Shown here: positions 14,460-64,000 of the stretch, piece after piece
How the letters are laid out: each line of letters opens with the position of its first letter
Numbering within the stretch: the stretch's first letter is position 1
Assembly (NCBI GenBank): GCA_965178125.1
Contig: OZ237770.1
Coordinates: 1-64,000 of the forward strand
Length of the DNA: 64,000 bases
Direction of reading: 5' to 3'
DNA from: Bilabrum cf. latius
Taxonomy: Eukaryota
Notes under the pieces: generated by a model
The model's database searches: none
What the model was told of the DNA's origin: nothing
What the model saw: only the letters and a program-made list of their open reading frames with translations
Translations under genes and position numbers: made by a program

Positions 14460-16256
14460 TCAATGCGATCTTGCCGGGTAAGCTCTAGTCGTGTACCGCA
14501 CAGTACCAAGGTTGTCATAGTACTTAACGACAAAGCCAGCATCGTTGAAGTATACGCCTGCGAATCCAGAATCTGCAGTCACTGCAAGCTCCTCGATGAC
14601 TGCATCGCTGGAGTACGCCAGCTTTGCCCTGCGATTCTCGTCCACTGTCAGGGGGCAGGTCGACTCGGCGGCGTGCACGTACTTAAGAGCCCCGGCCGGG
14701 ATGTCCTGCTTGTGCGAGGCAGCATAGCAGCACTCATGGAAGGACCCGGCCACAACATAAGCCACGTTGTTATTTTCGATGTGTGCCTGGATGTGGTCAT
14801 GGCCACACAGGTAGTGCGCCTACGAAATCACAAGAGTGGAGTGGCCGGAGTTGGCAAGGGGCGCATAGGTGATCAACTTATGGAGCTGGTGTACAGGAAG
14901 TATCCCCGCTGTATGGCAGGCAGGCGTACAGTAGGATCAGCTCACGCCGTACTTCTCGAGCAGGGGAGCCAGCTTGTCCACAAGGTCCTGCGTGGGTCCG
15001 TGCTGGCCAGGGCTCCACACCGGGTAGTGCCCCCCCACAAACACGAAGTCTGCAGAGCTCTTGGCGAGCTACTCATCGATCCACGCGTACCAGTCTGTGT
15101 TCTTCACCTCGGCGGGGACATCCTGCGAGCGCAAAGCAAGCAGCAAACAGCTAGCAGGGGAGCGAGGCCTAGGGAGCGGGGGGGCGGCCTGGACCAAATA
15201 CCGCGCTGGCAGAGGCAAGGCAGCTAACCGGGTGGCTAGCTCTGTGCTCACGATGGTGCGGGTCTCGTTGTCAGTGATCCCTGTCATGATCACGGTGTCC
15301 ACCATGACCACATCCACCGCGTACTTCTTGCCGGACTCATCTGATTCAAGCGTGTCCGAGAACGTGTAGAAGCTGCGAAGAAACTTCCAGGCGCTCAGAA
15401 GCAAGACCGACTCATCAACATGCAACAGACCTTAGCAGCAAAGCGCACTGGTACGAATAGTACGACTTACTAATCGGGATAGTTCCAGCGCTTGCTCAGG
15501 CTGCTGTACGCGATCTGGGCCGAGACATTGCCGCGGTGGTCATGGTTTCCAGCATTTACCCAGAACGGCACATCCTCGAGTTCAGCCGCATCGAATGGTC
15601 GCTCAAAAGTGTCCTGAAACCGAGACGAATGGACATCACCTTGGATACCGTGCGAGTAGAAGCTGCGCGAATCTTGGAGGATGTACGCAATTTAAAGCGA
15701 GTTCTAGAAGTCACTGCTATGGCAACCATTTTTGTTTAATATATTTTATCTAACTTGTCGCCGTTCAGCAGAATGAATGCCGGGGTACTGCGGAAGTGAG
15801 AAAACTTGGCAAGCGCCTTGCAGCAGCTGGCATGTCCCAATGCGCGGCGAACAAGACAGTCATCGCAGGATCAACTAACTCGTTCTTTGCCAGGGATCCA
15901 AGTCGACCAGCGGCAAGCTCTTCGCCAGCGGTGTAGTAGCTGCGCTGGCGTGATTGAAGCATGAGTAAGATGCGAGTGGTACGAAGTGCATTCTAACCCT
16001 TTCGTTAGCAATGGTAGATCGTCGCAGTAGGATGTAGGATATCCAGCGCATCTCACGGGGATGTCTCCTATCCACCCCAGTCACCCTGCGTACCAAAGGT
16101 ACAGATCAGCAGCAACCACCCTAGGTAAGCGTCGACAAGCTGATGACATGAACGTAGTCACGTAGTCGGGTGAACTTCACTCACAACTGAGAAGAACATG
16201 GATGAAGCCAGGGCGGACCCAGCGCTAGCAGCGCACATCAAAACGAAAGACCGCAT
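14460..16256 (-). CDS. Secreted purple/tartrate-resistant acid phosphatase (ACP5-like), multi-exon
   Basis: A signal-peptide-like start [11 protein letters not shown] is followed by the motifs [35 protein letters not shown] and CGHDH across GT-AG introns. In-frame TAG at 16068 and 15069; ends TGA. Confidence 0.88.
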
Positions 16257-16656
16257 CGGTATAACAAAACTGTGTAAATGTGTGTGCTGCGCTCTGCTGA
16301 CCGGATCTCGCGAGACTGGTCGAGCGGAACCGACGCCGCGGCGCCCGCGCCGAAGAATCCTTGTTGCTCAGCTCCATCTTCCCTGCATCAATCACACAAA
16401 CCGCATCAATAGTGCTAATCTGCAAGACACAGCGTAGAGTAGGTCGTCTGCTTTGCAGCTGAGTGAGATAGTTGAACGGCCGTGAATCGTCAAGTGATCG
16501 CCGATATTGTCTCTTGTATCCGTTGCAGAGAAGCCCATGCAGCAATTCTGCGCAGCGCATGCTCAAGACAGCACACCTTAATGATTCGATGCATGTATTC
16601 ACTTTCTGAAGTTGAATGAGCGCAGTAGTCGCATAACCCTCATAGCTAGCGCACAT

Positions 16657-18165
16657 ATGAGCGGGGCAAGGATATTACCAGCCGCTGGCCTTGATCCGAC
16701 TCACGTCACGCGAAGAAGCATAAACCTACTGGCAACCCACAGGAAATCTTTAAAGCATGACCAGGCGTAGAAGGCAGGCAAGTCTACATTGACGGCCATA
16801 GGCGAGAGGAGCCTCAGGAGCGAGCGGCCACGGCCAGTGGTGCTGGCAGGCAGGGACGTGCGCCACATGGAAATGGATATTACCGCCGGGACACCCACGG
16901 CGCGACCAGTCGTAGCAAGCAGGGTCCATAAGGTGAGTGCAGCTGACCGCCGGAAGAGAGCAGATCGATTGCGTGCCATCGACGAGGGCAGGCTGCAGCG
17001 GAACGTCGCCAGCGGTCGGTCAGACCAGGAGAGGCTGAGGCGAGAGGCGGACCGCATCAAGCGGGAGTTGATGGCCTCGGATGTGGGCGTCAGTATTTCA
17101 CATGCCATGTCTGCAGCAGCGGCAGTGTCGGTGCTGGACGAGCAGCGTGCCCGCAAGCAGCACCGCCATGCAGTGCAGCGAGAAGAGGACCTGGCCTGGG
17201 ACAGAGCTCGGCTGGACCAGGCCAGGGCGGAGGAAGCTACGGCCAGAAGCAAGGCGGCCCATCAGCGGGCGAGGAGCGTGCAGGTCCGGCAAGAGTTAGG
17301 CGAGTAGCTGCGCCGCCGGGCCATCGAGCGCCTGCTCGCCCTCGAGCGCAAGGACCAGGAGGGGAGGGCGGCGCTCAAGCAGCAGGCTGCCAGGGAGGAG
17401 GAGGACAGGGAGCGGGCGAGACAGCAGCGAGCACTGAAGCTGCAACTGCAGGCAGATCTACGGGCCTCCAACGCTGCCTCGGAGGCGATGAAGCAGCAGC
17501 GGGAGAGGCGGGAGGAGGAGCATGAGCGGGTGCTGGAGGAGGAGCGGGTGCAGCTGGAGATGGAGGCCCGCCGCAGGGAGCAGGAGGCCCGGGAGGAGAA
17601 AGAGGAAGAGGAGAGAATATTCCGCAAGCTGGCGGCACGGCAGCAGCGAGCAGCTGATACCGTCGCCGCCGAGGCCGAGGCCATCGCAAGGCGGGAGCAA
17701 GAGAAAGTGGAGATGGCAAGGCGGAGGCGGGAGCGGGATGCGCGGGAGGAAGCGGCTCGTCGGAAGCATGAGCTGCTCCAGGGTCTGGACGCGCAGCGCA
17801 AGAGGAGGGAGGCAGTGCTGGCCCGCGAGCGGGAAGCAGACCTTCAGGCGGCCATGGTGGTGCAGCAGGAGCAGGAGGAGGCGCGGTATCGAGCCTAGCA
17901 GGAGAAGGCAGCCCGGGAGCAGGACAAGGCGAAGTACCGAGCAGAGGCGCGGGCGGAGCTGGAGGCGCGGATGCGGGCTCGGGCAGGGGCGAGGCATGCC
18001 AAGCTGCTCGAGGCAAGGGAGGGGCAGATGACGCGACAGGCTGAATCACTGGCCAGGCAGGAGATCCAGAGGGAGGCCTTGGCGGAGGCAGGTCAGAGGG
18101 GGCTGCTTGGAGCCACGAGGGCGGTGGTGGACCGGGCTGTGGGCCGGGCAACTGGGTAGTTCTGA
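16657..18165 (+). CDS. E/R/A/Q-rich coiled-coil protein, possibly trichohyalin-plectin-homology ciliary type (502 aa with TAG=Gln)
   Basis: ORF-track fragments at 16789, 17488 and 17971 share one frame, broken only by TAG (16768, 17305, 17896, 18157). ATG at 16657, TGA at 18163. The family call rests on composition only. Confidence 0.72.
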
Positions 18166-18306: not shown

Positions 18307-20442
18307 TCACTTGAATGCACCGGCAGCTGCCTGCGCCGCCCTCGCGGCTGCTTGCTTCCGGACTGCCTCCACCGCCTCTCGCTGGGCCTCGTCCGCTCGT
18401 CGAGCCGCCACCTCGGCCCTCTTGCGCCGATCTGCCAGCCGCTCGGCCTGGAGGGCAGCAGTGGCCTGGCTCTCGCTCGCACGCTGGTGGAACTGCTCGC
18501 GCAATCGGGCAGCCAGTTCCTGTCTTCGCCTCGTCTCCGCCCCTTCGGGATCCAGGCCTGTGCCCACTGCATCATCTGCGCCGGGAGCCACCGCCGCTCC
18601 TCCGGTGGATCCAGCCATGCTCTGTATAGCCTGCCGCACGCGCGCTGCATCAGACCTAAACACACCACTAATGCTGCCAGCCCCAGAATCGCCCCGCCCA
18701 TGTGCGGCAGCCAGCGCCGCCACACGCTCTTTCTTCTTCTGCAGCATGGCTTCTCGCACCATCCGCCTCTGCTCCATCAGGTGCCTGCGGCGGGCCTCAA
18801 TCGCCTCCTACTCCCCTGAGCTAGAGCCCCCGGCAGGAGAATCTCGCGGAGCAACAGAGGCAGAGGTACCGCCCGCCCCCAAACCTAGCGCGCTTTCCAA
18901 TGCACTGCCTACATCGGAACTTTCCGATCTTTCCCCAGCGCGCGAGCTCCCGCCCTCGCCCCCGCCCAACATTCTGGCCCGCATGCCACGCACCCACTCC
19001 AGCTCCTGCGCAGTCCCCGCGCGCCGCTCTTCGGCAGCACTGAGCAGCGCAGGCAGAGGTGCACGGGCATGCGGGCCTGTTCCTGACGTTCCTGCCCCCC
19101 CGAGCGGGGGCAAGCCCGCCAGGGAGGAAAGAGATGATGATCCGGTGCCCCTTTTAGGAAGTACAGGTGCAGGTGCAGGTGCAGGTGCAGGCGTTGGTTC
19201 ATGTTCATGTGCATGTGCAAGTGCAGGTGCAGGTGCAGGTGCAGGTGCAGGTGCAGGTGCAGGTGCAGGTGCAGGTGCAGGTGCAGGTGCAGGTGCAGGT
19301 GCAGGTGCAGGTGCAGGTGCAGGTGCAGGTGCAGGTGCAGGTGCAGGCACATGCGTTGGTGCAGGCGCAGGCGCAGGCGTTGGTGCAGGTGCAGGTGCAG
19401 GTGCAGGTGCAGGTGCAGGTGCAGGTGCAGGTGCAGGTGCAGGTGCATGCACATCTGGCTCAGGCTCCGCAGCAGTTGCTGCAGCCTACTTCTCTGCCGC
19501 CTTGGTCTCCTCCTGCAGTGCCCGGATGCGGGCCTCCTCCTCTCGCAGAGAGGCAGCCAGCGCCTCCTCCAGCTCGCGAAGCTCGCGCTCCGCCTCTAGT
19601 CGATGCCTGTCTGCCTCTCGCAGGGATGCATCCAGGGCTTCCTCCAGCGCGCGCCTCTCTTTCTCTTCCTGCGCCTTCACCTTAGACCCGGCTTCGTTTG
19701 CCTCCTGCTCTGCCGCCCTCGCCGCCGCTTCGACCAGCGCGCTGACCTCCTCATCGGTGAGCCCACCCGTGCTGTGGGCGTCCTTGGCGAAGGCAGACGC
19801 AGCGTAGGCGTCCAAATCAACGCCTTGGGACCATGACGAGCTCCCTGCAAAGGCCGCCTCTGCGCTTACCGTAGCAGGTGCGTCTTGCGACCAGCCACCA
19901 GCAGGCTTCTGGCTCTCACCATCACCTGCATCGCTCGTCGGTGGACTGGCCGAAACCCCGTCTACTGCCTGCCCAATGGCTCTAGCAGCCTATGCCTCAA
20001 GCTGAGCATTGCGCCGGGCCATCATCAGGGCAAATGATGCATAGTCACTGGCTGCAAGTAGAGTATCTAATACTCTCTTATTGACAGGCCTGGCGTCGCG
20101 ACCTAGTGCGCTTCGCTCGCACAGTGCTGCGAATACTTCTGGACTAACTCCAACTTCAGCAAGGGCTGCCTCAGTTTGACTTTCAACTAACTCTTGCCAC
20201 TGCCTATGCAGGTCGGTAAGGGCTAACGGATGCTCAGCTTGCATGAGGCGCGTCGCTGAAGTGCCTTTTGGGACGCCATCCGTTGCACCAGCATCCATTG
20301 GTGCTGCCAGCGATGCAAACATGGCACAGTGCTCATCAACAAATGCTGCGAGAGGAGCTTCCCATCGTTCTTGTGCCATTAAGGCGCAAAGATGATCGAA
20401 TAGCCAATCCGCATCATCTTGCTGGTCGCTCACCGATGCCAT
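18307..20442 (-). CDS. CFAP36: CFAP36/CCDC104-like BART-domain protein (711 aa with TAG=Gln)
   Basis: The N-terminus looks BART-like (WEAPLAAFVDEHCAMF...LLAASDYASFALMMARRN). Four same-frame fragments are joined by TAG at 19990, 19486 and 18808; ends TGA. Confidence 0.8.
19165..19446 (-). repeat. Coding hexamer repeat (GCACCT)n encoding a (Pro-Ala)n linker
   Basis: gcaggt runs on the + strand lie inside the CFAP36-like ORF. Confidence 0.9.
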
Positions 20443-22353: not shown

Positions 22354-25096
22354 TCACTGGCAACTTGCCTGCAGATCTAAACAAGTCGGCATGCGTACAG
22401 CACCTCTCTCCCACTTCAGCACGAAGATCTTCTTGGCGGCTGCGAGAGGGAGACCCACGAGTGCATCTGGTGCTTCCTGCACTCCCTCTGTCACTGAGGA
22501 CCGCCTCAGGTAGTAGTGCGGAAAGAGTCCCCCGTCTCCCTCGGCCCTCTTGTCAGAAGGGGCCTCCCAGACCACCCCCGGCGACAGGCTGGCAGTGCCA
22601 GTGCTTGTGCTAGTGCCAGTGCTCGCACCATCGGCTTTAGCCTTGCCGGGCGCACGCAGCCCCGTCATCGCGGGCGACAGGCTGTCGAACTCGATGACGA
22701 TGGACCTCCGCCTCACCTCAGGTGCGGCGTAGAACAGACGGGCTGTGCCCAGCAGCTGCTGCACACTGGAGAGGTGCATGTACCCCGACCCGGAATCAAT
22801 AGGCTGGGGCCGTACCACCCACGGCTCTCCAGCTGACGTAGGAATAGGCCGCACGCTGCTGGGCGCGTGCGAGTCGCCCCCTGTCGCTGGGCCACTGCCA
22901 TCGCTACCGCCACCGGCAGCCTCTGCTTGAAGGGCGACTGCGTCCTTGTCAGCGATGCGGAAGGAGGACCGCAGCCGGCGGGCGGCACTGCTGGGGCCAT
23001 CCACTGCGGACTCGCACACAGCTGTAGGCCCGGCAGGGCTAGCAGCAGCATAGTCTGTACCCTATGTCGGTGGCGAAGCTCTGACTCCCCGACTCTCGCT
23101 CGCAGGACTCGTGCTCCGGTAGGTCACCACGGTCTCCTGCCAGGGCTCGCACCACGCCGCCTGGATCGATGGGTGGGCGGGCGGCATACAGTCCCCGAGC
23201 ATGGACGACGCCTCTTTGTGCACGAGGACGCACGAGTCGTACCGCAGGCGACGGCTCGCGGGGCGTCCATCCCCGCTGGCCTCTCTCTGCAGCGGGTCAG
23301 CCTCCTCCTAGGAGCCTCCGAGAAGTGCTCCTGCCGGGCCCGTGGGCACCATCAGCGGCACCCAGGACCGAGACAGGGCAGTGGTGGCGCGGCTCAGCCC
23401 TTGGCGGACAGTCCACTGGACTCTTGCCTTGCTCGGAGCTGTGCCCGACGGAACATCAGCAGCCTCACACTCGCTCCACTCCTCCATCCCCTCAGGGGTC
23501 GTGCTGGCTGCCGGTGCGGTGACATTGCCATCTGATGTGGCTGACTCTGACCCCGCCGTGGTCGCACGGCCCTAGAAGTCCTTGTGCAGCACGTGCACGT
23601 GTCTGCGCCCGCCAGCGCCAAGCGCTAGGCCGACTACTGTGAGCGACCGACTGCCGTACGGTGGGGTCGAGCGCCCTTCAGGCGCACCTGCCGCAAATGG
23701 ACGGGCCGGCAGTAGGAAGGGCCCGCTCTGGCAGAATTGCTCTGCCTCCTCTCCCACAGGGGACCACCCGAACTCACTGCTCCGTGGAGAGGCTGCCTCG
23801 GGGTCGCTTCCTGCTTCTTGCCCCCCGTTGACTGTGGTGCCAGTGGACAGCATCGGCGGCAGGAGATCCAACAAAATTCTGTGCAGGAGAACGTGCCCGT
23901 CGGCATCACTCTCGTCACCGGTGGCTTCATCCTTTGCCGGGCCAGTGGCTTCATCCTTTGCCTGGCCAGTGGCTTTATCCTTTGCCTGGCCAGCTGTCCT
24001 ATCAGCCTACACGCGGAGAGCAGTCGCCCGCCGCAGTAACTCTCCCCGCAGCACCGCCGTCATCGCCCAGCTGCGGCCCCCCGAGCCCACGTCACCGAGT
24101 GTCGAGTTGCTCAGCACGAGGACCTTTGGGGCTGAATCCTTCCCGGACCTATCAACACCCGACTCGCTAATCGGCATGACGCACATTTTGGAGCCCCCGA
24201 GGGCAGCGAGTCCATCCGTGGAGGAAGCAGTTCGTGCCTCTGCCGCCTCCTAGTCGTGGATGCGTCCATCTGTGGAGGAAGCAGCTCGTGCCTCTGCCGC
24301 CTCCTAGTCGTGGATGCGTCCATCTGCATGGATCGAGAGGAGAACACTGCACCCAGCGCTCTCCCAGGCTGGTGATGCCCCCTTTGACAACCCAACGGCA
24401 GAGCATTGACCTGCAAGGGCAGTCGCAGATTGGTCCCATAGTGACCCGACTTCGTGATGAGACTCTGGCCCAGTCGGGATCTTCGATTCAGTACTAGTAG
24501 GCGGTCGGTTCGATACGAATACCGCTGACGGTCCCCGACACGGCGTGGCAAGACCACCGAGTTTGATTGCATTGAACCCCCCAAACTGCACCCCTTCTTT
24601 GTCATCGTCGTCACTTGGTACCTCGTGCACACCAGCACCGGCACACGCAAGGTCTTTGCATGCCGCAAGGTATGGAACCAGCAGTCCCCTCGATAGCAAA
24701 TTACCAGCAGGGCAAGGCACGCGCGGCACTGCCTTTGACCGTACGTTAGTCAGAGCGCATACGGACCCAGCATTGATGTCCAACCCGATCCAAGTCCCCC
24801 CAACTTTCAAATCTCTCGGACAGAGGAATTTTCTCGTCGTGCCGGCAGGGCCCAGCACCGGCATGTCGCACACTTGCAAGGGGCCAGCTTCTCGTTCCTG
24901 CGAAGGAATGGGTAAATCAAACCGAACATGGATCATGCATTAGTCAAAGGCTTCGCCGAAACCTCACTACCACGGCAAGGGTAACCATAGCGTTTGGTGT
25001 GGAGCAGTGCCCGCTCACGAGAAACTCGTCTCGCAAATGCAGCACAATGGTCGGAATCTTGGGGTGTACATTGAGAACTACGAGAAGCTTGCACAT
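22354..25096 (-). CDS. TANGO2/NRDE-family protein fused to a C-terminal DUF952-like domain
   Basis: NRDE-type motifs are MC...RDEF, RDLKVGGTWIG, LTNVR, SRGLLV, GGFN, LSNSTL and YGSRSLTVV. DUF952-like motifs are GYMHLSSVQQ, VVWE and LFPHYY. After the first intron there is one frame with six TAG and no TAA/TGA until 22354. Confidence 0.78.
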
Positions 25097-29502: not shown

Positions 29503-30693
<1,191 letters not shown>

Positions 30694-33163: not shown

Positions 33164-33181
33164 TAAAATAATGCTTAGAAC

Positions 33182-50300: not shown

Positions 50301-50579
50301 GGGATGAATCGGGTGCGCGGGGCCGCGCTGATGGTGGGCAGGCACGCAATCCTGCGACAGGGCCTCAAGCGCGCCGGGACGGGCATTACTAGACCATAGA
50401 ATGGAAATACGGAGATTCAGGCTGCAGCATAGGACTAGTCCCAAGCGGCACCCCCTTACAATTAGTTGGGGCGGAAACCCCAAAACGTCGTTAAGCTTGG
50501 GACTGCAAAGCAAGGACAGTAGGGGGATCCAGGTGGCGCGGCTACACTGGAGGCATCTGCCCCAGGTTCGCAAGTGTAA
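41352..50579 (+). CDS. Four-domain voltage-gated Ca2+/Na+-type channel alpha subunit (intronless, 3075 aa with TAG=Gln)
   Basis: Four 6-TM repeats with S4 segments (LRAVRALRPLRSI; LRLLRIVRVFRL; ARVLRCTRPFRS; LRFARLFRVAR), pore loops TQEGW/AGQGW/SGEAW/TGEGW and a C-terminal EF-hand-like segment. One frame from ATG 41352 to TAA 50577 with about 26 TAG. Confidence 0.9.
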
Positions 50580-50760: not shown

Positions 50761-53700
50761 TCAGTCCGCAGAGCGCCCATCGTCACTCATCGCATGACCT
50801 CTGCCTCCGGTCACACTCACACCCGAGTTGCCCCCGCCACCGACCCCGCCCTCCCGATCTTCTTCTATCTTTGCCTCCAGCGACTCCAGCGCGGCCCGGA
50901 TGTCCCCAGCATCCCTCGGGCCCAGCTCCAGCGCCCGCCCGTACAGCTCCACCGCCTCCTCCCGCAGCCCCAGCCTCCGACTCGCCCTGGCCGCCAGCAC
51001 AAGCACCGCGGGCTCCCTGGGACACACCCGCCTCAGCCGAAGCATGAGCCCTCTCGCGCCCCTCGCGTCGTTGTCGTCGTCCAGCCTCCATCGCGCGGCA
51101 GCAAAGAGCGCCTGAGCGTTGCCTCCGTCCTTCCGGAGCGCCTGCACGGCCTCTCTCAGAGCCGCCTTCTTCTGCCCCCCCGCGTGCAGGGCGTGCGCGT
51201 ATGCCACCCGCAGCGAGGCGCTGGAGGGGTGCAGCATGACAGCCTCACGGTATGCCCCCGCTGCGTCTGCAGGCGCGTCCCTTCTCATCATGGACATGCC
51301 CAGGCCATACCAAGCCCTGTAGCAGCGGTAAGAAAACTGCAGCGCAGTGCGGTACCTCTTCTCAGCAGCATCCAAGTCACCGCAGGCCAGGTGCTCGTGG
51401 CCTGCCAGCACGTGGACAGTCTCCGATGTGGGCGCGAGTCGAGAGGCGCGTCGGAAGCAAGCCAGGGCGCCCGCGTGGTCTCTCAAGAGCGCCCTGTTGT
51501 TCCCCTGGACCACCCATGTCTCCGCCCTACCAGGTTGTTCCCTGGCTAGCCGTTCGGCCAGCAGCCCCAGCTCACCAGCCCGCTGCAGCTGCCACAGCGC
51601 TGTCGACAACAGCACAGGGGCCCGAGGCTCCCTGCAGGATGCATTGCACGATCGCTGCAGGAACCCCGCCGCCAAAGCGTACCGCCCCGCCTCCAGCTCG
51701 ACCTCCCCGCGCAGCGCTAGGGCCAGGGGGCTGTCCCCGTGTGGCTGGGGCACGGCCTCGATGGCCTGTCTCGCCCGGTCCAGCCGCAGGCAGCCCAGCT
51801 CCCGCGCCGCGGTACCAAGCAGTCGGAGCAGGCCGAGCACCTGCTCGAACCCGGAAATCAAACTCTCCTTATTTTCCCTCGCCCTCTGCCGCAGCGCCTC
51901 CGACAGAGCCCCGAGCATCGCGCCCGCCGATGGGCCCTCTTGTTCCCTGGACTGTTCCCTGGCCGAGCTCTTCGCAGCAGAGTCCCCCACGTCATCGTCG
52001 TCGTCCTCGTCGCCATTACCGCCCCTGCCGCTGTCCTCCCCACCCGACGCGCCCGTGCCACCGGCGCACTGACCAGGAGCACCTCGCTGCTCTCCAGCGG
52101 AACCGGAATCTGCGCCACGTACTGGCGACCCTTGTGCCGCCACTACGCTCGCTGCAGACGTGCCCCCAGTGGCTGGGAGCGACCTGGCCCCCTGTCCCTG
52201 TCCATGTCCCTGTCCATGCCCCTGATCACCCCCCCCTTCCGTGATACCTTGGCCCTCGCCCGTACTAGTGTTCGGTTGCGGCGTCTCTTCAGAAGCAACG
52301 GGCGTGCGCTGCACACGCGCTTGTTCCCTGGACCTGGCCCTGGATCGCGTCATGGGTCGGGTGTCCTTGATAGCATGCTTCCCTGGCTTGTCACCGTGCG
52401 CTATCGTGCCGTGCACCCCTGCCCGCTCCTCCTCTGCGACCAATTTCCCGGCAGGCGTGCCCGAGGAGGGAGACTAGTCCGTGTACAGCTGTCTGCCCCT
52501 GCCCCTGCCTTCGTCCTTGCCCGCAGCGGCACTGTGGGGGGGCTCCTGCCGGGGGATGATCCCCATGGCGGGGGTATAGGGTCCCGCGGGAGTATGTTCC
52601 GCATCGAATCGCGCGGCGCTCATGTCCATTTCCGCCTCATCGCGGCCCCTTTTGTGAGGCGCAGTCATGGAGGCGCTCGATCGAGCGGGGGCCGCCAGCG
52701 CACCGGAGTGCAGTGCACCTCCTGATGAGGACCCCAGCGGGTTTCTGGCCCCGGGTGGGGTGGCACCATGGGCGGAGGGTGGGTGCGCGGCGCCCCTGGT
52801 TCCGCTGCCCACTGGGGTATCGGCAGCGGCGAATGCCAGTCGGCTGCGGGCCGTGTGCCTGGGGAGTGCGGGCGGGCCAACGGCGGGGCCTCGGTGCGCG
52901 GCGCCACCGGTTCCGCTTCCAACGAAACGGGAGCGATCGAACGGAGACCACACCGGAGCGGGGCTCCAGTGCGCGGCGCCGCCCCCGGTTCCGCTGCCCG
53001 CGCCCACCGGGCTCAGCCCAGCAATGGATCCACCGGCCAGAAGGCGCCCTCCCCCGGGGAGGAGCACAGGGCCGCTGCTCCGATCCATTACGGAACCGGC
53101 GCCGCGCGATTCAGCGGCGGGAGTGCCGGGCAGACACATGGGCACCGGCGGGGTGAGGGCGCAGGCAGCCTCATCCCCTGCCAGCGGTGGAGGGTGCTGG
53201 TGGTGGGGCTGGTGCTGGTGCTGCCCGGGCTTTGGGCGTGACGGTCCATCGTCTGTGGCATGGGCGTGCGTCCTCGGCGTGCTCGCAGCGCCGTGCAGTG
53301 CACCCTAGTGCCCCGCCGTCCCGCCCGCTCCGGCCCGCATCGTTCCCTGGATCGTCACACCCAGGTCCTCGGGGCCGGCACCTCCCTTCACTGCAGAGGC
53401 AGGCCACGACGGGACCGGCCTGTCATCGGCGCCGCGCGAAACTGCGGAACCAGGGGTTCCGGTGGAGACCCGCGTGGCGATTTCAAGGGCGGCATGGAGG
53501 GACCTGTTGAGCGTGCGGCCCGTGCGCCGGCGTGCGCGGCGCCCAGATCCGGTTCCGCTGCCGCTCCGAAGGCCGGATTGCTGGGCTGCGCCCCGAGGCA
53601 TTGCGGAACCAAGAAAGGCGCCGCGCGCGTCGGAATGTGCCTCCGGCACGGCAGACAAGCCGCCCGCGCTCGGGGGATGCAGGTGCTGCGGCGGGTGCTG

Positions 53701-55083
53701 GTCCGCGACTCGCATGGTCTCTCTGGCATCGGCGAACATAGACGAAGGTTCCCTGAGATCCCCCGCCGACATGGCTCCCTTGGAGGAGGGGGCCGAGGAA
53801 GCGGCGCCGCGCAATCGGGCCCGGGCGATGCGCGGGTCCGTGGAGACCTCCGAGGGAGCGTCGGATCCACCGGTGGATCGACCCATGCCGGTGCGCGGCG
53901 GTTCCCGGTACTGCTGACGTGGTGCGGTCCGTGGGTCACCAACCTGACCCTGCTGATCGTACCCTCCAGATGCAGGCGGCCGCTTTGCGGAGCTTCCTGT
54001 GTGTGCGCGGCGCCGGATCGCGAACGACGACCCAGATCCAGCCCCTGACCCCACCCGCGCGCCACCCTCGCTCGTCACACCTTTGCCGGAGCCCGAGTGT
54101 CTGTCTCGCCTCCTGCCCCTAGAACCCACCGCCCGCCCAGCAGCCACAGCGGCCCCCGCCGCCCCCATGTCCGCCCCTGCCCCCGCCGCTGCAGGTGCCA
54201 GGAGCTGGACCAACGTGGCGCCCGCCGCCAGCTGGGAGCTCGCAACGGCCGCCGCAACGGCTGCCTGCGCCGCTGACTCCCCACTCGTCACACCCATGGC
54301 ACCTGTACCATCCGCAGCCGCTTCGAGGGCATCGGCCGCTGCTGTTTGCGCGGCGCCTCCCACCTGAGTGGCGAGCGCGCTGCGGAACCGCTCGCTCATC
54401 GCGAGCACGTGCCCTGCTGGGGGCGCCTTCCCCATCCTAGCCATCCTCTCGTAGGCACACCACATGAAAGGATCGTGCGCCAGGACCGCGGCATACACCC
54501 CCAATGCGTCCTCCAGCTTGCCCTGGGCCTCGGCCACACGGCCCAGCAGGTACAGCCCCGCCGCCCCGTTGGGGATGCGGGAGCAGTCTCGGCTCAGGGA
54601 CTCGAGCGGGAGTGGGGCGCCGTGCAGGCCCGCAGGGCGCAGCAGAGCCTCTGAAGCGGCTAGCAGCTGGCCCTCTTCCACGAGCGCGCGAGCAAGCAAG
54701 TACTGGTTGGCCGCAGCTGATGATGGTCGCAAGATTTCGATCGCCTCCGGGCGGCGTCCCGCGTAAATGTAAGCACACGCTGCCAGATGAATGTACGTCT
54801 CATTGTTTGGTTCGAGAGATATGAGACGCTCCGCTAAGAACGCCGCAGTGTCGTGGAGGTGCAACGAGAGATAGTGCTCGATGAGCCGAACCAGAGGCGG
54901 GCCCATCTGGCTCCGCTGCTCCTCCAGACCTTCTAGCTCGCCATGAGGGTTATACCTGCGAGTTTCACCTCCCTTGACGGAAGACAAACCCGAAAATCCT
55001 ATCGAACGCTAAGCGATAGGTCTGGTCTAGCTGAATGGCGAGCTGCCAACACTGCCGCTGGCACCTGAAAATTGGCCCCCCAT
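50761..55083 (-). CDS. CDC27: Anaphase-promoting complex subunit 3 (Cdc27), TPR protein
   Basis: N-terminal AAFLAERL...HDPFMWCAYE and C-terminal TPRs (LSTALWQL, ETWVVQGN, LAGHEHL, YRAWYGLG). Fragments share one frame joined by TAG (53305, 52474, plus two upstream); ends TGA. The start could be a downstream Met. Confidence 0.85.
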
Positions 55084-55306
55084 GGCACGAACTCCGCCAT
55101 CTCCAGGAGTGACACCACCTCCTGGTGTACCAAAATTCAGCATGGCTTCGTGAACAGCGTGATTAGCCACAGGCGTTTATTTGCTCGGGCTCCCTGCCCA
55201 ACGAGTGCGAAAGTTGACGCCGCGCAACGGAACCGGGTGTTTGTTCCGTTGAAATCCGGCGCCAACCAGGATTTGTAGATCTGGCTGTCAGGGAAGTAGG
55301 ATCAAA

Positions 55307-56564
55307 ATGTTCAGGAACAGCTATCAGCACGGATTCTTGAGTATTCTGTTTTCGATTGGGTGAGCAGATCATATCTGAATTAGGCCTGCTTGGTCGCATC
55401 CCTCGGGTACAAGTGATCCGTTGCAGGTTGCAGCCATCCAACGGGGCGGGCGTAGGCCCAACAGTATTGCATTGTGATAGCATCTAACTGATACTTGTAT
55501 ATTTCATGAGGCGGCTGAGTCGCACGACTTGCGCTGTCGCCGTTGCTGGGTGGCAATGAGGATCTGACTGCGAAGTAGCATCCGGAAAATCGCCCGTTTT
55601 ATTGCGCTCCTAACAGACTTTGTGCTACCAGCACACGCCTAAACTACTGATTTATTATCAATTTGACTGCCGCAGAAGCAAACCTTTGCAAATTTGGGAC
55701 AGCAAGGGTGAGATTGACTAGAGGCTGCCGCAACGGCAATATGCTCGTTGAACCTTGCACAGTAGCACGCACTGTTGCCGCGCAATCAAGCCCACTCTTC
55801 CGGTCGCACCCGCCATACTTGTATTTGCAGTAAAGAATGGGCACATCAAGCGAATCAAGGATGGTGACATCAATTCCAGTGTGCTCGAGGTTTGCGGGAC
55901 GAATGTAAGCACCACCTACATCACCTGCCCGAACCACCCGAAGCGAACGCTTGGCATCAAGTTGCCCTTCTTGGTAATGATTATTAAGAACTTGAAGAAG
56001 TACTTCACGTTCGAGGTCACGGTGCTGGATGACAAGAACATCAAGCGAAGGTTTCGAGCGAGCAACTACCAGAATGTCACGCGGGTGAAGCCCTTCATCT
56101 GCACAATGCCGATGAGGCTGGACGAGGGCTGGAACCAGGTGCAGTTCAACCTGAGTGATTTCACGAGGCGAGCATACGGCACGAATTTCGTCGAGTGCCT
56201 CCGCGTGCAGATCCACGCCAACTGCCGCATCCGCCGCATCTACTTCAGCGACAAGCTCTACAAGGAAGCGGACCTTCCCAAGGAATTCCTCCTCTACATG
56301 AAGAAGGACGAGGTGGACCCAGGCATGGACGCAGGTGCCGGCGCCATGGCCATGGAGGAGGGGGGGCCCGCGGGCGGGGGCGCCGCCATGGAGGACGAGC
56401 ACGCGGGGGCTGGTGGCGAGGTGCCGATGGCCATGGAGGAGGCAGGGGAGGAAGGGGGTGCTGCACCCATGGCGGAGGGGAAGGAGGAGGGCGGTGCTGC
56501 CCCCATGGAGGGAGGTGAGGAGGGTGGCGCGGGTGGCGCTGTGCCTGCCGGTGGCGAGAGCTGA
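55307..56564 (+). CDS. CFAP20: Cilia- and flagella-associated protein 20 (BUG22) with an acidic Gly-rich tail
   Basis: [33 protein letters not shown]...[23 protein letters not shown]...[17 protein letters not shown]. Two introns; ends TGA. Confidence 0.95.
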
Positions 56565-56866: not shown

Positions 56867-58551
56867 ATGCCAAAGAAAGGATCAAAAGAAGATGCCGAGC
56901 CTCGCGTGCTTCTTGGCCGCCCCGGGAACAACGTGAAGATGGGAATCGTTGGTCTTCCGAACGTAGGCAAATCAACTTTCTTCAACACGCTTTGCAAGAT
57001 GAATGTTGCGGCAGAGAACTACCCGTTTTGCACGATTGATCCGACAGAATCTCGTGTAACAGTTCCTGTGAGTTGTGTGCTAGGCTGGAGCGGGGACAGC
57101 CCCATTCTCCCAATGTGTGTTGCAATTGTGTTTCAAGCACAGAGAAAGAATCGCTAAATCTCAGAATCCAAAACTGCATTCGTATAGTATTCGAGTTTAT
57201 TTTGCGCAGGATGATAGGTTTGATTGGCTGGTGAAGGCCTACAAACCGAAGAGCGAGATTCAGGCCGTGCTGACGGTGACTGACATCGCTGGCCTGGTGA
57301 AGGGGGCATCTGCAGGCGCCGGTCTCGGCAACGAGTTCCTTTCAAACATCGCCTCTGTCGATGGCATCTTTCACATGTGCCGGTGAGCCGTCATTTGCCC
57401 TTTTGCTGTTCCCCGTTCGCCCCCCGCACAGCTTCACGGTCTCCAGTCGCAGAGAGGGGAGCACTCGCAGTGCTTTTCCTTGCGGCTTGCACGATGTACC
57501 GCCCCCCACTATGCACATTGGTAGTATATGCATTCATATCCGCAGTGGCTTCCCCGGGGAGAAGGTGACCCACGTGGAGGGCAGCGTGGACCCCTGCAGG
57601 GACCTGTCCATCATCATGCGGGAGCTCATCCTCAAGGACCTCGCCAGCGTCAAGAAGTGGCTGCAGGCGCGCAGGCGGAACGTGTGCAGGGGCACTGCAT
57701 CCAAGGAAGACAAAGCAGAGTTCCTGGTGATGGAGAAGGTCTACCGATTCCTGAGAGACCCGGAGTTCGCCAAGACCATGATGCTGGAGCCCGCCGGAGG
57801 GGCTGGGGGGGCCGCCAAGGGTGGGGCCAAGAAAGCTGCCGCGGCGGTGTCCAGCGCCACCGCTGGCGCGGGCATGGCGAAGATCGCAGAGAAGGGCCTC
57901 GAGGACGAGGAGGAGGAGATCCCCGAGGATGCCGAGCTGGGGGCGCAGGTGAGGTTCGGGAAGTGGGCAGCCTCTGAGGTTGAGGTGCTCAACAAGGCAC
58001 TGCTGCTGACCAGCAAGCCGGCCATCTTCCTGTGCAACCTGAGCGAGAAGCAGTACTGCAGCAAGAAGGCCAAGTGCTTGCTGGAGATCAAAGCGTGGAT
58101 CGACGAGAACTGCCCCGGCGAGAAGCTCATCCCGTTCAGCGCAAAGTACGAGAGCAAGGTCTTCAACCTCGCCGAGGAGGACCCAGCCAAGGCCACGGCC
58201 TACATCAAGGAGAAGGGTGGCAAGTCCATGCTCCCCAAGATCATCAAGGCGGGCTACCACAACCTGGGCCTGATCCATTTCTTCACGGCAGGCGAGAAGG
58301 AAGTCAGGGCCTGGAGCATCCGGGCGGGCATCCCAGCGCCCAAGGCTGCCGCGGTGATCCACACGGACTTTGAGAAGGGCTTCATCCAGGCAGAGGTGAT
58401 GACCTTCGACGATCTCAAAGAGGCCGGGAACGAGGCCGAGACTGCCAAGGCGGGCAAAAAGAGGACCGAGGGGAAGGCCTACATCGTCAAGGACGGCGAT
58501 GTGTGCTTCTTCAAGGTAGCCACGCTGGGAGGAGGTGGCAAGGGCAAGTGA
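56867..58551 (+). CDS. OLA1: Obg-like ATPase OLA1/YchF
   Basis: [55 protein letters not shown]. Introns at about 57068-57209 and 57383-57545; ends TGA. Confidence 0.95.
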
Positions 58552-59473: not shown

Positions 59474-61885
59474 ATGGAAGGTTTAGTAGCAGAAGTGCGT
59501 AGCGCTGGCCTGCAGGCTTTGCGGGACGCAGATGCGGCTACTCGCGAGTCAATCAATCAAGCCGTGAAAAGCGAGCAAATGGCCCCGCTCTTCGCGACAG
59601 ACCCGTGCAATGCGCTTGTGCACTATTCCAGTACCAATATGGCGGAAGAGGCAGCGAAACACCTCGCCGCAACAGCACTCGCAGCCCTTGGTACGGCTGC
59701 GCGCGACCAACTAGCCCCGATTTTTAGGTCGTTCTTCGACAGTGGCACGTCAAACTACGCCTCAGCGCGCATGACTTGGTGGCTTGCCTTCGGTTTTGCG
59801 GGAATGCTTCGTTCGCCTGAGAACGTCGACGTCTTCAGCGTGTGGACGGATGATGGTCTCCCGAGCCCCGCAGGCGCGGATTCGCCAGCACAAGAGTGCT
59901 TGGCATCGCTGTACGCTTCAGACCTGTACTCCAACTTGTTTGTACCTGACATTCCGAGCGGTCTTACAGCAAAATATCGGGCTGGACTCTTACAGCTGTC
60001 GCTGACGGCGCCGTCCGCGATCGAGGCGGCGACACTTGCAGCGGCGCAGACGTCCATTTTCAACCCGGCTCCCCACCAAGGCGAGCCAGCTCCGGCGGCT
60101 CCAGGCATACCGAACTTGCCTCAAGCAGATGCCGCAGCGGGTGGGGTCGGTCAACCCCCGGCAGGGATCGAGAACGTCGCCCCAGCGGCGGTGGCTGCGG
60201 CGGGAGTTGCCGGCGACCAACCTCAGGCGGCAGCACAACAGGGACCAGGGGAAGATCAGGCTCCGGAAGGGGCAGCAGCAGAAGATGCTGGCGACCCACC
60301 GCCCCCCCCGCCTGCATCGGGTGCGGGCATGAGCGCCGACGAGTTGATGCCGGACTCCCCGGCTGGCAGCCCTCTCGGCTCCGAGTAGCAAAGGGCATCT
60401 CTACTCCATTTCCTATAGGTTCACTTGTAGGCTATTACGCAAGGCGACCTCCAGACAGATCAAGTCGCCGACATTGCCACCGAACTCGGCCTGTTCAAGG
60501 GTCTGGGTACTATGGGCACCAACAGCACCGCGACTACGGTGATCTTGCTGTTGCGTCCATTGCTTCAGCACTGTGGTCACGAAGGCTCAGTGGACTTTTT
60601 CAGCGAAGCCCTACATCGGGTCGGAGACCATGTACGCAAGAGGCACAAGCTGCGCGAGGCCTGCATCTCAGCGGGTTTCCTCGCGGCGTTCAATGAAGTC
60701 GACGAGCCGAAAGCCGGCGACTAGCAGCAGCCAGCATCGGGGGCCCAGTCTAAGCCCGCCAAGATCCCGGCGTTCTCACCTGCCTCGCATGCTACGCGCG
60801 AGGAGATCCTCTCGGAACTGCGGAAGACCTCTCCTACAATGATGCAAGCAGCAAAACCGGACGCTGCTCTCGCACAATTCGCCCAAACAAGCGCGGCGAC
60901 CGGCCCAGTGGGAACTCAACTCCTCTCCGCGGCCCTAGGCGAAGAACTTATGGGGCTGCTCCCGACCGGGCTCCTGGATATTCTGGTGCGTACGCTGGCG
61001 AAGTTCTCGGGTAACTTGGTCAGCATCAAGACAACATCGGGGGCGACTGTGCGAGAGTGGACCACTAGTTCAACTGTTTCAGCTCAACAGCTAAAATCAT
61101 CAGCCCCGGCCACGCACACAGTGTTGGACCGAAACATCCGGGCACTTCACCGGGGCACAACCGCTGTTCTCCAAGTGGTCAACAAATTGCGGGACCAAGC
61201 TGCAGCTGAGGGCCGACTGGCAGTTTCCGACGCACCTGAAGGAGACATTCGAGACCTCGTCCGGACTACAGTAGAAGTCTACGCTCGAGCAGAAGGCTCC
61301 AGCATCACGATGTCGGCCATTCCAGCAAAAGACGCCCAGGCCATCTTGGGACAGCTATAGCTCTGTCTCTTCAACGCCAACGCAGCGGCCGCATCCCTGC
61401 AGTAGCTAAGTGCGACCGTGAGGATCGCACTTAAAGAACGCGTCATGCGTATCCTGTTCACCGTTAATGTGGCTGCAAGTACTGGATTCTGGATCGACAC
61501 CAGACATGTGAAGCGTACCGATTTTATCGAGCTGCTCACGGAATTTTCCGATCAGGCAGCAGCAGCGCTGTTTGGCCCGGACCATGCCCAATGGACTCAG
61601 ATGTTGTCCTCAGGACAACAGGCGAGTACCAGGGATCATACTCGACGTGGAAATCGCAGCGCACCAGCCCAAGCGGGACGAGGCCGAGGTCAGGGCCGCG
61701 GTCAGGGCCGGGGTCGGGGCGGTAGAGGTCGAGGTCGAGGGCGAGGGCGAGGCCAAGGTCGCGGAGGCCACGGTCACCAAGCTGCGGACCGCGACTCCGA
61801 TACCCATTCAGGCCAGCCCGGTGAAAAGCGGTCGCTAGATGACCGGGAAGGTTCCCCGGCGGCCAAAAAGACGCCCTCGTCCTGA
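59474..61885 (+). CDS. Retroelement ORF1 (gag-like, 803 aa with TAG=Gln) with a C-terminal RG/RGG-rich region
   Basis: ORF-track fragments at 59468, 60512, 60839 and 61418 share one frame separated only by TAG; ends TGA at 61883. Confidence 0.75.
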
Positions 61886-64000
61886 CATGCAGCAGCTGGG
61901 CGCGCCAGCCCGGCAACTACAGGAGCCGGGGGCCTTTTGGGGTCTGATGTGATTGCTGGAGGAGCTGATTCCATCGCACAGGTTATGCATTCCTGGTCCC
62001 AATTCCCCACACGAGGCCCCGCTATCAAAGTGCTCTTTGACGCACTACTCGCTATGCCAGCTCCGCCTGAACAACCTAGGGTTTCAAAACCGGTCTCGCC
62101 ACCAGAGGTTTCACACCGCCTGTCCGCCGCCCCCTCCCCGGCAGCCAGACGTACGTTGCTGTCCCAGTTAATCTTCCGGTCGCTCCCTCAAGGTGCGTAG
62201 CTGGCCAATACAAAAGATCGTCCCGCGCACAGCCTCTGCCCACTAGCCATGGCATCTACCCTGGCCTCTGCGGCACGTCAGGCGGCAGCGGCACGCAAGG
62301 ATCAGCCCCCAGCGTGGGCAAGAGCATCACTACCAGAGGTTGGAGCTCGTGTCGGCTAGCCTTTTTCCTTCGGCTCATTCTCGGAGATTACTGGCTCAAT
62401 CAGATAGAAAAATCAGGCGGCCGCAGGGGCGGCGGCGCTGGCGGTGGAGACGGCAACTAGCATAGAGGGAACTGTGCCGCGCAGATATAGAGAAGCTGAT
62501 GATGTCGCTGCTGCTGCCGTTGAACAGAATGGCGCGGCCAGCAAGACGGTTGCACTGGGGTACGCTGTGCCGCGTGATGCGCCTGAAGAAGCTGATGCTG
62601 TCGCTGCTGCTGCCGTTGGGCAGAGTGGCGCGGCCAGCAAGACGGTTGCACCGAGGCACGATGTGCCGCGTGATGCGCCTGAAGAAGCTGATGCTGTCGC
62701 TGCTGCTGCCGTTGGGCAGAGCAGCGCGGCCAGCAAGACGGTTGCTCCGGGGTACGCTGTGCCGCGTGATGCGCCTGACGAAGCTGATGCTGGCGCTGCT
62801 GCTGCCGTTGGGCAGAGCAGCGCGGCCGGCAAGAAGGTTGCTCCGGGGTACGCTGTGCCGCGTGATGCGCCTGACGAAGCTGATGCTGTCGCTGCTGCTG
62901 CCGTTGGGCAGAGTGGCGCGGCCAGCAAGAAGGTTGATCCGGGGTACGCTGTGCCGCGTGATGCGCCTGACGAAGCTGATGCTGTCGCTGCTGCTGCCGT
63001 TGGGCAGAGTGGCGCGGCCAGCAAGAAGGTTGCTCCGGGGTACGCTGTGCCGCGTGATGCGCCTGACGAAGCTGATGCTGTCGCTGCTGCTGCCGTTGGG
63101 CAGAGCAGCGCGGCCAGCAAGAAGGTTGCTCCGGGGTACGCTGTGCCGCGTGATGCGCCTGAAGAAGCTGATGCTGTCGCTGCTGCTGCCGTTGGGCAGA
63201 GCAGCGCGGCCAGCAAGAAGGTTGATCCGGGGTACGCTGTGCCGCGTGATGCGCCTGACGAAGCTGATGCTGTCGCTGCTGCTGCCGTTGGGCAAACTGG
63301 CGCGGCCAGCAAGGAGCTCCCGGCTACATCTCCAGGACTCGAAGTACCGGAGGCCCACTTACCGGCACCAGAAGCGAACTCTCACCCTCCCAACCTCCTT
63401 CGCACGGAAGATCTTCGCTAGTGTTGGACCACGCACCTCACCAGGTTGAGCTAGATTCGAAGGGTGGTTCGGGTGCAGGTCAACCCGCACGGCAAGCGAC
63501 CTGCCCTGCACACGAACATCATTGCCATACATAGACTCCGATGCCCTAGTTGTAAACAACCCAAGAGCTGTATCGTGCTTTCAGCACTGTAGCAGCTTGT
63601 GGAGAAAGGTGTACCGCTTCAAGACTTCATTACCGCCCAACGACCAAAAGCACTAGCACACCGATGGACCAGACACGCCCAACCCTCCGATGCTGTCGGT
63701 ACCATGGTGTCAGACTTGTTGTCAGAAGGTGTAGCTCGCCATGTGCCGGCTGAGGGCCTCATTGGGGAACCCCTGCGACATTTCATCGTCACGTCTAAGG
63801 ACTACATCTTGAGCGAGAGCGGCCTTCGCAAGGAAGAAGCAGGCGACGGTAGGAAGCCACGGCTTGTCATGGACGGTCGGCCTCTCTCCGCTATATCCCA
63901 ACGAGCTCCGTTCTCAATGGCGGGCATACATCATTTTGCTGCCAACCTTCAGTCCCGCAGTCACATGTTCAGCGTGGATATCAGCGCTGCGTACTACCAC
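61886..64000 (+). CDS. Retroelement ORF2 (reverse transcriptase, partial)
   Basis: The frame is open apart from TAG from 61886 to the window end, with the first ATG at 61985. RT motifs appear at about 63850-64000. Confidence 0.8.
62474..63313 (+). repeat. 96-bp coding tandem repeat (~9 copies; VPRDAPDEADAVAAAAVGQSGAASKKVAPGYA)
   Basis: gtgccgcgtgatgcgcctga recurs every 96 bp within ORF2. Confidence 0.92.

Follow-up and report, generated by a model that had tools for sequence, protein, structure and literature searches.

Known UAG-only codes and the window

Nuclear codes in which UAG and UAA carry different meanings are rare. Many ciliates, Hexamita, Streblomastix, ulvophytes and Amoeboaphelidium use a table-6 code, in which both UAR codons specify glutamine. 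A split between the two codons is described for the fornicate Iotanema spirale. In the sections of the paper that treat its code, UAG alone is reassigned to Gln, with a predicted tRNA-Gln(CUA), the sole anticodon reading UAG but not UAA, and a T32G change in the GTS motif of eRF1 (Panek et al. 2017, PMC5304391). The ciliates Hartmannula sinica, Trochilia petrani and Protocruzia tuzeti likewise read UAG as Gln, according to the relevant part of a later survey (McGowan et al. 2024, PMC11687900), which gives UAA as their preferred stop (86.9–98.3% of genes) and UGA as the rarest. The same part lists UAG-only changes to leucine in Rhizaria sp. exLh and the TARA phyllopharyngean ciliates, and to serine in Scotinosphaera. 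The initial annotation of the DNA analysed here had given Iotanema as its example of a UAG-only change; this precedent stands, but set beside that part of the survey (PMC11687900) the list was incomplete, as the three ciliates above also belong to it.

We analysed a window of 64,000 nucleotides at a chromosome end (telomere repeat CCCTAA/TTAGGG, GC ∼60%, introns of 123–316 nt). UAG lies inside many conserved, expressed genes of this window and takes the place of Gln. We are highly confident that UAG means Gln in the nuclear genes, that UGA is the main terminator, with UAA probably a minor one, and that neither of the latter two is a sense codon, a pattern which we take to be NCBI translation table 15. 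The same reassignment had been proposed in the initial annotation, and alignment columns, relatives, frame statistics and four concordant sequencing runs all support it.

Like Iotanema, as far as the code sections of that report go, the window has UAG as a sense codon aligned with Gln and keeps UGA, and apparently UAA, as stops. However, the dominant stop in Iotanema is UAA, whereas TGA prevails here, and the two also differ in lineage and genome type: the telomere of the window is TTAGGG-type, its GC is 60%, and its OLA1 carries an insertion also found in Cafeteria. The three ciliates, on the data in that part of the survey, show the same codon change and have sense UAG across most genes, but the order of stop usage is reversed in the window, and its telomere, intron sizes and base composition are not ciliate-like. 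Ciliate telomeres are of another type than TTAGGG, and a ciliate host was rejected on these three features. Table-6 codes also turn UAG from a stop into Gln, probably by a tRNA-Gln with a changed anticodon, but UAA is sense in them too. In Rhizaria sp. exLh, the TARA ciliates and Scotinosphaera, as the survey part lists them, UAG is uncoupled from UAA as here but the amino acid differs. The code type is already known (Iotanema, some ciliates), and the host most plausibly adds a new lineage to those with UAG-only = Gln.

Table 1. Genes and open reading frames of the window, with TAG read as sense
Feature	Position	Strand	Length (aa)	In-frame TAG	End	Matches and structure
TPH (trichohyalin-plectin homology) domain protein	16657..18165	+	502	4 (aa 38, 217, 414, 501)	TGA	PF13868, E = 7.9e-18
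BART (ARL2-binding) domain protein	18307..20442	-	711	3	TGA	PF11527, E = 1.3e-18
860-aa ORF	22354..24936	-	860	6	TGA	Weak DUF952 match, PF06108, E = 9.2e-6
Ankyrin-repeat protein	27126..28499	+	457 (from first ATG)	3	TGA	Pfam Ank_2/Ank/Ank_4
Ribosomal protein eL22	28719..29260	+		None in exon 2	TGA at 29258	PF01776, E = 2.4e-16 (exon 2); at least 2 exons, exon 2 from ~29009, intron borders predicted
Dim1 (18S rRNA dimethyladenosine transferase)	29503..30693	-	396	4 (aa 20, 34, 140, 171)	TGA	PF00398, E = 4.8e-62; PDB alignments
MAP3K/STE-like protein kinase	31082..33163	+	693	9	TGA, then directly TAA	PF00069, E = 1.2e-50; PDB
Unknown putative ORF	33182..34267	-	361	6	TGA	No Pfam family
Unknown putative ORF	34397..36595	-	732	3	TGA	No Pfam family
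Got1/Sft2-like membrane protein	38677..39150	-	157	None	TAA	PF04178, E = 0.0035, under curated cut-off
DUF6691 / sulphur-transport-like membrane protein	39379..40530	-	383	1	TGA	PF20398, E = 3.7e-28
Four-domain voltage-gated cation channel (Cav-like)	41352..50579	+	3075	26	TAA	Pfam Ion_trans, E = 1.8e-173, in 4 stretches, and GPHH; no intron
CDC27/APC3-like TPR protein	50761..55143	-	1460	4	TGA	Pfam ANAPC3 and TPR families
CFAP20	55307..56564	+	272	None	TGA	PF05018, E = 1.5e-74; introns 55359-55674 and 55707-55829 (spliced contigs, GT..AG joints in X6 and X7)
OLA1 (Obg-like ATPase)	56867..58551	+	459	None	TGA	Pfam MMR_HSR1 and YchF-GTPase_C; introns 57068-57209 and 57382-57544, confirmed by spliced contigs
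Retroelement-like unit, ORF1	59474..61885	+	803	6	TGA	No Pfam family
Retroelement-like unit, ORF2	61985..64000	+		6	Open at window end	Frame of ORF1

In-frame TAG codons and the absence of in-frame TAA

With TAG read as sense, 81 TAG codons lie in frame in 13 ORFs of the 16.6–64 kb region, which bears out the earlier claim of at least 12 genes broken by TAG only. Breaks in these ORFs are never caused by TGA, TAA or a frameshift, and for nine of the 13 there is a supporting Pfam match. UAG makes up ∼15% of Gln codons (81/523; 14 ORFs counted). TAG was not found in OLA1, CFAP20, eL22 exon 2 or the Got1-like gene; these four are short or highly expressed, as expected for a rare codon read by a minor tRNA. 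The longest open frame grows from 619 to 3079 codons once TAG is sense and stays at 619 codons when TAA is sense instead. Many frames also lengthen with TGA as sense (up to 980 codons), since TGA outnumbers the other stop triplets in this GC-rich DNA. Hence, ORF length alone is not a valid test.

A non-circular test set is provided by 4802 codons from seven genes that are bounded by homology on both sides. TAG occurs 25 times in frame in this set, against 47 and 34 times in the two other frames. TGA is absent in frame (83 and 94 off-frame), and so is TAA (14 and 20 off-frame), of which 17 were expected from the off-frame rates (Poisson P-value = 4e–8). These counts bear on a table-6-type code, in which UAA and UAG would both be Gln, UGA would be the sole stop, and UAA would be rare owing to high GC. 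Among the stop triplets of the region, TAA is indeed the least frequent (420 versus 823 TAG and 1354 TGA), and the two genes that end in TAA could instead terminate at in-frame TGA codons lying 6 (Got1-like) and 9 (channel) codons downstream. However, the absence of TAA beside 25 TAG remains improbable when composition is estimated from the codons themselves (P-value ∼0.001, from an A-ending share of 0.22–0.25 in twofold codons and the CAA/CAG ratio). Moreover, the sole two in-frame TAAs stand at the very ends of ORFs, as random sense codons would not, and in confirmed frames no TAA was found bridging two stretches of coding sequence. We therefore consider such a code very unlikely: neither UAA nor UGA is a sense codon.

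Amino acid identity of UAG

In Dim1, the Gln share of the TAG columns is 118/118 at aa 20, 25/120 at aa 34, 120/120 at aa 140 and 89/120 at aa 171. Just four of 298 aligned Dim1 columns have Gln at 0.7 or above, and three of these four are TAG here. Gln is found in 13/28 and 20/27 sequences at channel aa 2233 and 2267, respectively, and its share in four kinase TAG columns is 0.11–0.19 versus 0.032 for other codons. Log-odds were summed over the 21 TAG columns that could be aligned and were sufficiently occupied. Gln scores +3.1 bits, ahead of every other residue by ∼49 bits; Ala is next (–46.2), Glu reaches –53.4, and Leu, outside the eight best residues, lies below –57.2. As a control, the same scoring gave back the standard amino acid for 60 of 61 sense codons. 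Column by column, Gln ranks first in just 7 of the 21. The Gln enrichment of aligned columns, on which the initial annotation had made its reading depend, is present by log-odds.

Kinase fragments of 81–94% identity are available from two other assemblies. The standard-code ORFs of both close relatives break at the position of window TAG 398 and restart at M403. At TAG 548 one relative breaks and the other has an ordinary Gln codon; such codons also stand at TAG 110 in one close relative and at TAG 398 in a relative of 63% identity. At TAG 484 the close relatives have Thr. The same UAG usage occurs in at least two close relatives. These relatives are known as fragments in public assemblies only.

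Two sites would suit another amino acid for UAG, for example one of those known from other UAG reassignments (Glu, Leu, Ser). One is kinase TAG 597, where Glu is found in both close relatives and is the commonest residue of the column (29/73); the other is channel aa 2404, a TAG codon on a column with Ile, Val or Leu in 28/28 homologues. Against the summed scores for Glu and Leu, the TAG codons at the two invariant Gln columns of Dim1 and the Gln of relatives at three kinase TAG sites (110, 398, 548), we regard any of these meanings as extremely unlikely.

Termination of translation

Among the 16 genes scored, 14 end in TGA, two in TAA and none in TAG. The TGA ends first annotated for Dim1, OLA1, CFAP20, eL22 and the kinase hold at each gene, as do the TAA ends of the Got1-like gene and the channel, while the common TAG ends that would have spoken against the reassignment are absent (0/16). 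The TGA of Dim1 lies precisely where its human and yeast counterparts terminate, and OLA1 of a relative (81% identity) likewise stops at TGA. UGA stays a stop, as shown by its absence in frame, the 14 of 16 gene ends and the Dim1 C-terminus. UAA would appear to be a working terminator as well, judging from two genes, each with a TGA soon downstream.

Stop codons can be used in a context-dependent manner, as in Condylostoma and, for UAA, in Blastocrithidia. UAG could similarly be ambiguous here, that is, Gln inside genes and a terminator at some gene ends. TAG is enriched near ORF ends, with 5 occurrences versus ∼1.7 expected in the last 20 codons (12 ORFs). The last TAG of the TPH gene stands two codons ahead of its TGA, kinase TAGs stand 12 and 15 codons ahead of the stop, and the channel has five within its last 60 codons. 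Moreover, the kinase ORFs of the relatives stop after '...FK', whereas the window continues for 90 more residues. However, the C-termini of Dim1, OLA1 and eL22, which are placed by homology, coincide with TGA, and TAG is absent there; in CFAP20, too, the end is a TGA, though it follows a non-conserved tail. The channel tail is rich in Gln encoded by ordinary CAG and CAA too, which suits coding sequence. Overall, we consider ambiguous UAG unlikely, but given the end enrichment some ORF tails could truly end at UAG.

TAG codons in sequencing runs

In four runs, each from a different study, every TAG covered reads T-A-G with no other letter. Runs X6 and X7 contain GT..AG-spliced contigs of CFAP20 and OLA1, and therefore both hold cDNA. 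Of the 26 channel TAGs, 22 lie in X6 pieces, as do two of the four in CDC27; X7 pieces likewise cover two of four in CDC27. The X6 contigs are colinear with the channel gene over 42255–50694, save for two skipped repeats, and have no other letters at the TAG sites, and in the X7 piece 54608–55167 two CDC27 TAGs are unchanged. X6 was classed 'probably DNA' and may also hold DNA; RNA-level evidence is therefore weaker for the channel than for CDC27 (X7). As far as contigs rather than raw reads can tell, with rare variants lost in contigs, UAG is present in mature mRNA, neither edited nor spliced out. Editing and splicing had been named at the outset as ways in which the reassignment might fail; in the X6 and X7 contigs the T-A-G is kept and no joints fall at the TAG sites covered.

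The retroelement-like unit is multi-copy, with a depth in X1 of 83–106 versus ∼26 elsewhere. X5 differs from its ORF1 at three places, all of them synonymous in the ORF1 frame.

These data bear on the possibility that TAG is not what the ribosome reads at these sites, owing to errors of sequencing or assembly, to pseudogenes, to small introns or to U-to-C RNA editing. No support for this was found, although contigs can hide rare variants. The four runs agree at every TAG covered, contigs of the spliced-cDNA runs are colinear with the genome across TAG sites and jointless there, the 13 ORFs are interrupted by TAG alone, and the relatives break at the same codons. We give this explanation almost no credence, and retain UAG as a translated Gln codon.

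Host lineage and mechanism

The window OLA1 protein has an insertion in common with that of the stramenopile Cafeteria, which points to a putative stramenopile host. On the weak lineage evidence of this kind, the UAG-only code may have arisen independently in the host lineage. We put forward tentatively, as a serious possibility short of a conclusion, that reassignment of a nuclear stop codon is seen here for the first time among stramenopiles: a heterotrophic flagellate related to bicosoecids, together with two or more close relatives, would have evolved UAG-only = Gln independently, in a GC-rich genome whose main stop is UGA, not UAA. If so, the base composition would be opposite to that of every ciliate case, and codon capture under AT pressure would not fit.

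Mechanistically, UAG is read as Gln, with UGA ending most genes and UAA apparently a few. By analogy with the Iotanema findings, in the code sections of that report (PMC5304391), a tRNA-Gln with anticodon CUA would decode UAG yet not pair with UAA, and eRF1 would have lost or weakened its recognition of UAG while keeping that of UAA and UGA. Within the window there is no tRNA gene of any kind (ARAGORN; Rfam) and no eRF1 gene.

Implications

Codes with split UAG and UAA meanings bear on how eRF1 discriminates between stop codons and on whether reassignment requires AT-biased genomes. With its 60% GC, mostly UGA stops, chromosome-level assembly and RNA data, the host would be a tractable non-ciliate system in which to search for the suppressor tRNA-Gln(CUA) and the altered eRF1. 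Standard-code gene callers will fragment most long genes of the host and its relatives, and the relatives' kinase is present in protein collections as pieces of 53–295 aa. Therefore, annotation and phylogenomics of the host and its relatives need a code with TAG = Gln.

In-frame TAG, TAA and TGA

The window opens with a telomere and a subtelomere of ~14 kb built of 155-nt repeats and more CCCTAA arrays; from ~16.6 kb on it is gene-dense nuclear DNA (roughly 53–65% GC, GC3 = 0.69 in confirmed genes) with spliceosomal GT..AG introns of 123–316 nt. The unusually many internal telomere arrays may be genuine features of the subtelomere or may arise from the assembly. The basis of all results is this 64-kb window together with public homologues and one alignment of public runs.

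Coordinates of features in the window
Feature	Position	Strand	Description
Telomere	1-594		99 CCCTAA copies
Chromosome end	1-14300		recurring blocks of four 155-nt repeats with long internal CCCTAA arrays in between
Internal CCCTAA arrays	1290-1985, 2681-3868, 4552-6419, 7256-7889, 10337-10546, 13431-14100
Duplicated segment	8502-10276 and 11584-13370		~3 kb
Pro-Ala dipeptide run	19164-19447		6-nt unit x 47 copies, in frame in BART-domain protein
24/72-nt repeat region	21424-21786		long in-frame simple repeat, frames open on both strands
Dim1	29503-30693	-	18S rRNA dimethyladenosine transferase, 396 aa
Kinase	31082-33163	+	MAP3K/STE-like, 693 aa
Kinase end	33158-33166	+	tandem stop, TGA then TAA directly
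Two unknown ORFs	34397-36595 and 33182-34267 (within 33182-36607)	-	one frame, parted only by TGA at 34397-34399
Channel	41352-50579	+	Cav-like, four-domain voltage-gated, 3075 aa, 26 TAGs
CFAP20 joints	55706->55830 (X6, X7); 55358->55675 (X7 alone)		first joint GT..AG
OLA1 joints	57067->57210, 57381->57545 (X6, X7)		GT..AG
OLA1 exon 3 insertion	57900-58000		acidic/Ala-Gly-rich, ~55-70 residues by eye
Retroelement-like unit	59324-64000		multi-copy
Retroelement ORF1	59474-61885		6 in-frame TAG
Retroelement ORF2	from 61985		6 in-frame TAG
Repeat in ORF2	62492-63313		96 nt x 8.6 copies

With TAG read as sense, we found 81 in-frame TAG across 13 ORFs, nine of which have family-level identity by Pfam: a TPH-domain protein, a BART-domain protein, a weak DUF952 match, an ankyrin protein, Dim1, the MAP3K-like kinase, a DUF6691 membrane protein, CDC27 and the channel. 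Codon counts gave no TAG in OLA1, CFAP20, eL22 exon 2 or the Got1-like gene. Among 16 scored genes, 14 stop at TGA and two, the Got1-like gene and the channel, at TAA. The initial annotation had described genes interrupted only by TAG and ending in TGA or TAA, and this description is accurate. The longest open frame grows from 619 to 3079 codons with TAG as sense and is unchanged with TAA as sense; treating TGA as sense likewise extends many frames in the GC-rich DNA of the window. As ORF length is weak evidence in such DNA, we counted stop triplets within stretches flanked on both sides by Pfam/PDB homology (7 genes, 4802 codons). TAG occurs there 25 times in frame (47 and 34 times off-frame at +1 and +2), TAA never (14 and 20; Poisson P = 4e-8) and TGA never (83 and 94). 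Adding spliced OLA1 and CFAP20 (5533 codons) leaves the in-frame counts of TAG, TAA and TGA at 25, 0 and 0. In frame, TAG is tolerated, and TAA and TGA are excluded.

UAA is probably a stop codon, and its status is the least secure part of the code assignment. Only two genes end in TAA, and each has an in-frame TGA 6 or 9 codons further on. Against UAA as sense, the homology-bounded count lacks in-frame TAA, and 0 TAA versus 25 TAG has a P-value of ~0.001 given the A-ending share of 0.22–0.25 of twofold codon pairs. Moreover, no two coding segments are joined by TAA in any confirmed frame, and both TAA occurrences lie in the last few codons of genes, which is not expected of a rare Gln codon. 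It is also possible that UAG has a dual use and terminates occasionally: the last 20 ORF codons are mildly enriched in TAG (5 observed versus ~1.7 expected, 12 ORFs), and kinase ORFs of relatives stop earlier than that of the window. Yet the homology-placed C-termini of Dim1, OLA1 and eL22 use TGA, as does CFAP20 after a non-conserved tail. For the two unknown ORFs, a lone intervening TGA is within chance expectation in this window, but the pair could also form a single gene whose TGA is recoded or misassembled.

Amino acid at UAG

Alignment with 120 homologues placed Gln at the Dim1 TAG columns (118/118 at residue 20, 120/120 at residue 140 and 89/120 at residue 171); the TAG at residue 34 falls in a variable column (Gln in 25/120). 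A Gln share of at least 0.7 is found in only 4 of 298 aligned Dim1 columns, three of which are TAG in the window. For the channel, 28 distant homologues have Gln in 13/28 at TAG 2233 and in 20/27 at TAG 2267; at TAG 2404 all 28 have Ile, Val or Leu, and the other channel TAG sites are variable. The four alignable kinase TAG columns have Gln shares of 0.11–0.19, with a mean of 0.032 for other codons (150 representatives). Gln scored best in the log-odds summed over the 21 sufficiently occupied TAG columns (+3.1 bits; Ala -46.2, Glu -53.4), in a scheme that recovered the standard meaning of 60 of 61 sense codons, TCA being the miss. Gln ranks first in 7/21 of these columns and first or second in 9/21, a ranking ordinary for Gln codons, since the mean Gln share at channel CAG and CAA columns is itself 0.095 and 0.040. 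The alignment columns support UAG = Gln.

Two other tests did not discriminate. PDB alignments of the kinase were uninformative, its TAGs falling on variable positions (Thr/Lys), and the Gln share within five codons of TAG is 0.046 versus 0.040 overall. Lys is the most enriched neighbour (2.2-fold within five codons; 12 ORFs, 16657–61885), and the highly expressed OLA1, CFAP20 and eL22 have zero TAG. From these two observations, TAG seems to be placed where weakly expressed genes are locally less rich in GC and under less constraint.

Public runs and a retroelement-like unit

Four public sequencing runs from four studies were aligned to 41001–61000 as contigs, in which rare variants are lost. 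No sequence difference was found at any TAG covered; the only three differences in all, each in run X5 (which covers 19/30 bins), are third-position changes that leave the protein of retroelement ORF1 unaltered. Run X6 is rated probably DNA, and the RNA status of X6–X9 is a guess; contigs of X6 and X7 are spliced at GT..AG in CFAP20 and OLA1, hence both runs hold cDNA. X6 pieces span 22/26 channel TAGs and 2/4 CDC27 TAGs; X7, without cover over most of the channel, spans 2/4 CDC27 TAGs. Over these sites neither run has any other letter or a joint. Editing or splicing of UAG out of mRNA, the alternative named in the initial annotation, was thus sought and not seen in these cDNA-holding contigs.

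The retroelement-like unit has a depth of 83–106 in run X1 versus ~26 on neighbouring genes, and several loose ends at 59323/59324. Its two ORFs lie in one frame with a single TGA as the only stop between them, an arrangement that would be expected of a readthrough fusion. Since in-frame TAG is present in both ORFs, the element obeys the code of its host.

Close relatives and lineage

Two other assemblies (contigs of 5905 and 4698 bases) encode short proteins 81–94% identical to the kinase. Being standard-code ORF calls, they reveal by their ends the stop codons of the relatives. In both relatives one fragment stops at residue 397 and the next starts at M403, so that window TAG 398 marks the break; at this position a more distant relative (63% identity) carries Gln. 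One close relative ends at 547 (window TAG 548), where the other has Gln and reads on, and one has Gln at TAG 110. At TAG 597 the two close relatives carry Glu, and at TAG 484 Thr. This comparison indicates that TAG and ordinary Gln codons interchange between near relatives, which share the unusual UAG usage because conserved coding sequence runs on past their breaks. Two metagenome contigs of 3.5 kb (80–81% OLA1 identity) carry an OLA1 exon with a TGA stop; outside the exon they have no Pfam match, and a putative ORF there has 4 in-frame TAG.

The telomere type is TTAGGG. Among named sequences, Dim1 is matched best by diatoms, Triparma and oomycetes (68–72% identity; other sequences reach 75–77%) and OLA1 by Cafeteria roenbergensis (46% over 97% of the query). 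In our alignment, the OLA1 insertion is common to the window, C. roenbergensis and three environmental sequences, and absent from the five amoebozoan, animal, metamonad, diplonemid and gregarine OLA1; it may serve as a lineage marker. Together, these features point to a bicosoecid-related stramenopile. A ciliate or fornicate origin was rejected on the basis of the telomere, the GC content, the length of the introns and the shared OLA1 insertion.

Relation to known codes

By analogy with the mechanism in Panek et al. 2017 (PMC5304391), we infer that UAG would be read by a Gln-charged tRNA with anticodon CUA, which could not read UAA, and that eRF1 would have to ignore UAG and still recognise UAA and UGA. 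That study found that the GTS motif of Iotanema eRF1 carries the change T32G. The 64-kb window contains no tRNA genes (ARAGORN; Rfam at gathering thresholds) and no eRF1.

PMC11687900 lists UAG alone as Gln in Iotanema spirale, Protocruzia tuzeti, Hartmannula sinica and Trochilia petrani, as Leu in a rhizarian and TARA ciliates, and as Ser in Scotinosphaera. According to this paper the main stop in the ciliate UAG = Gln cases is UAA, whereas window genes mainly use UGA. In full texts outside subscription journals and supplements, we found no stramenopile or bicosoecid reported to have a UAG = Gln code; none of the terms 'genetic code', 'stop codon', 'UAG' and 'TAG' occurs in the Incisomonas MAST-3 genome paper (PMC12614181). 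Overall, the UAG = Gln nuclear code is real and of a known kind, and the lineage appears to be new for it.
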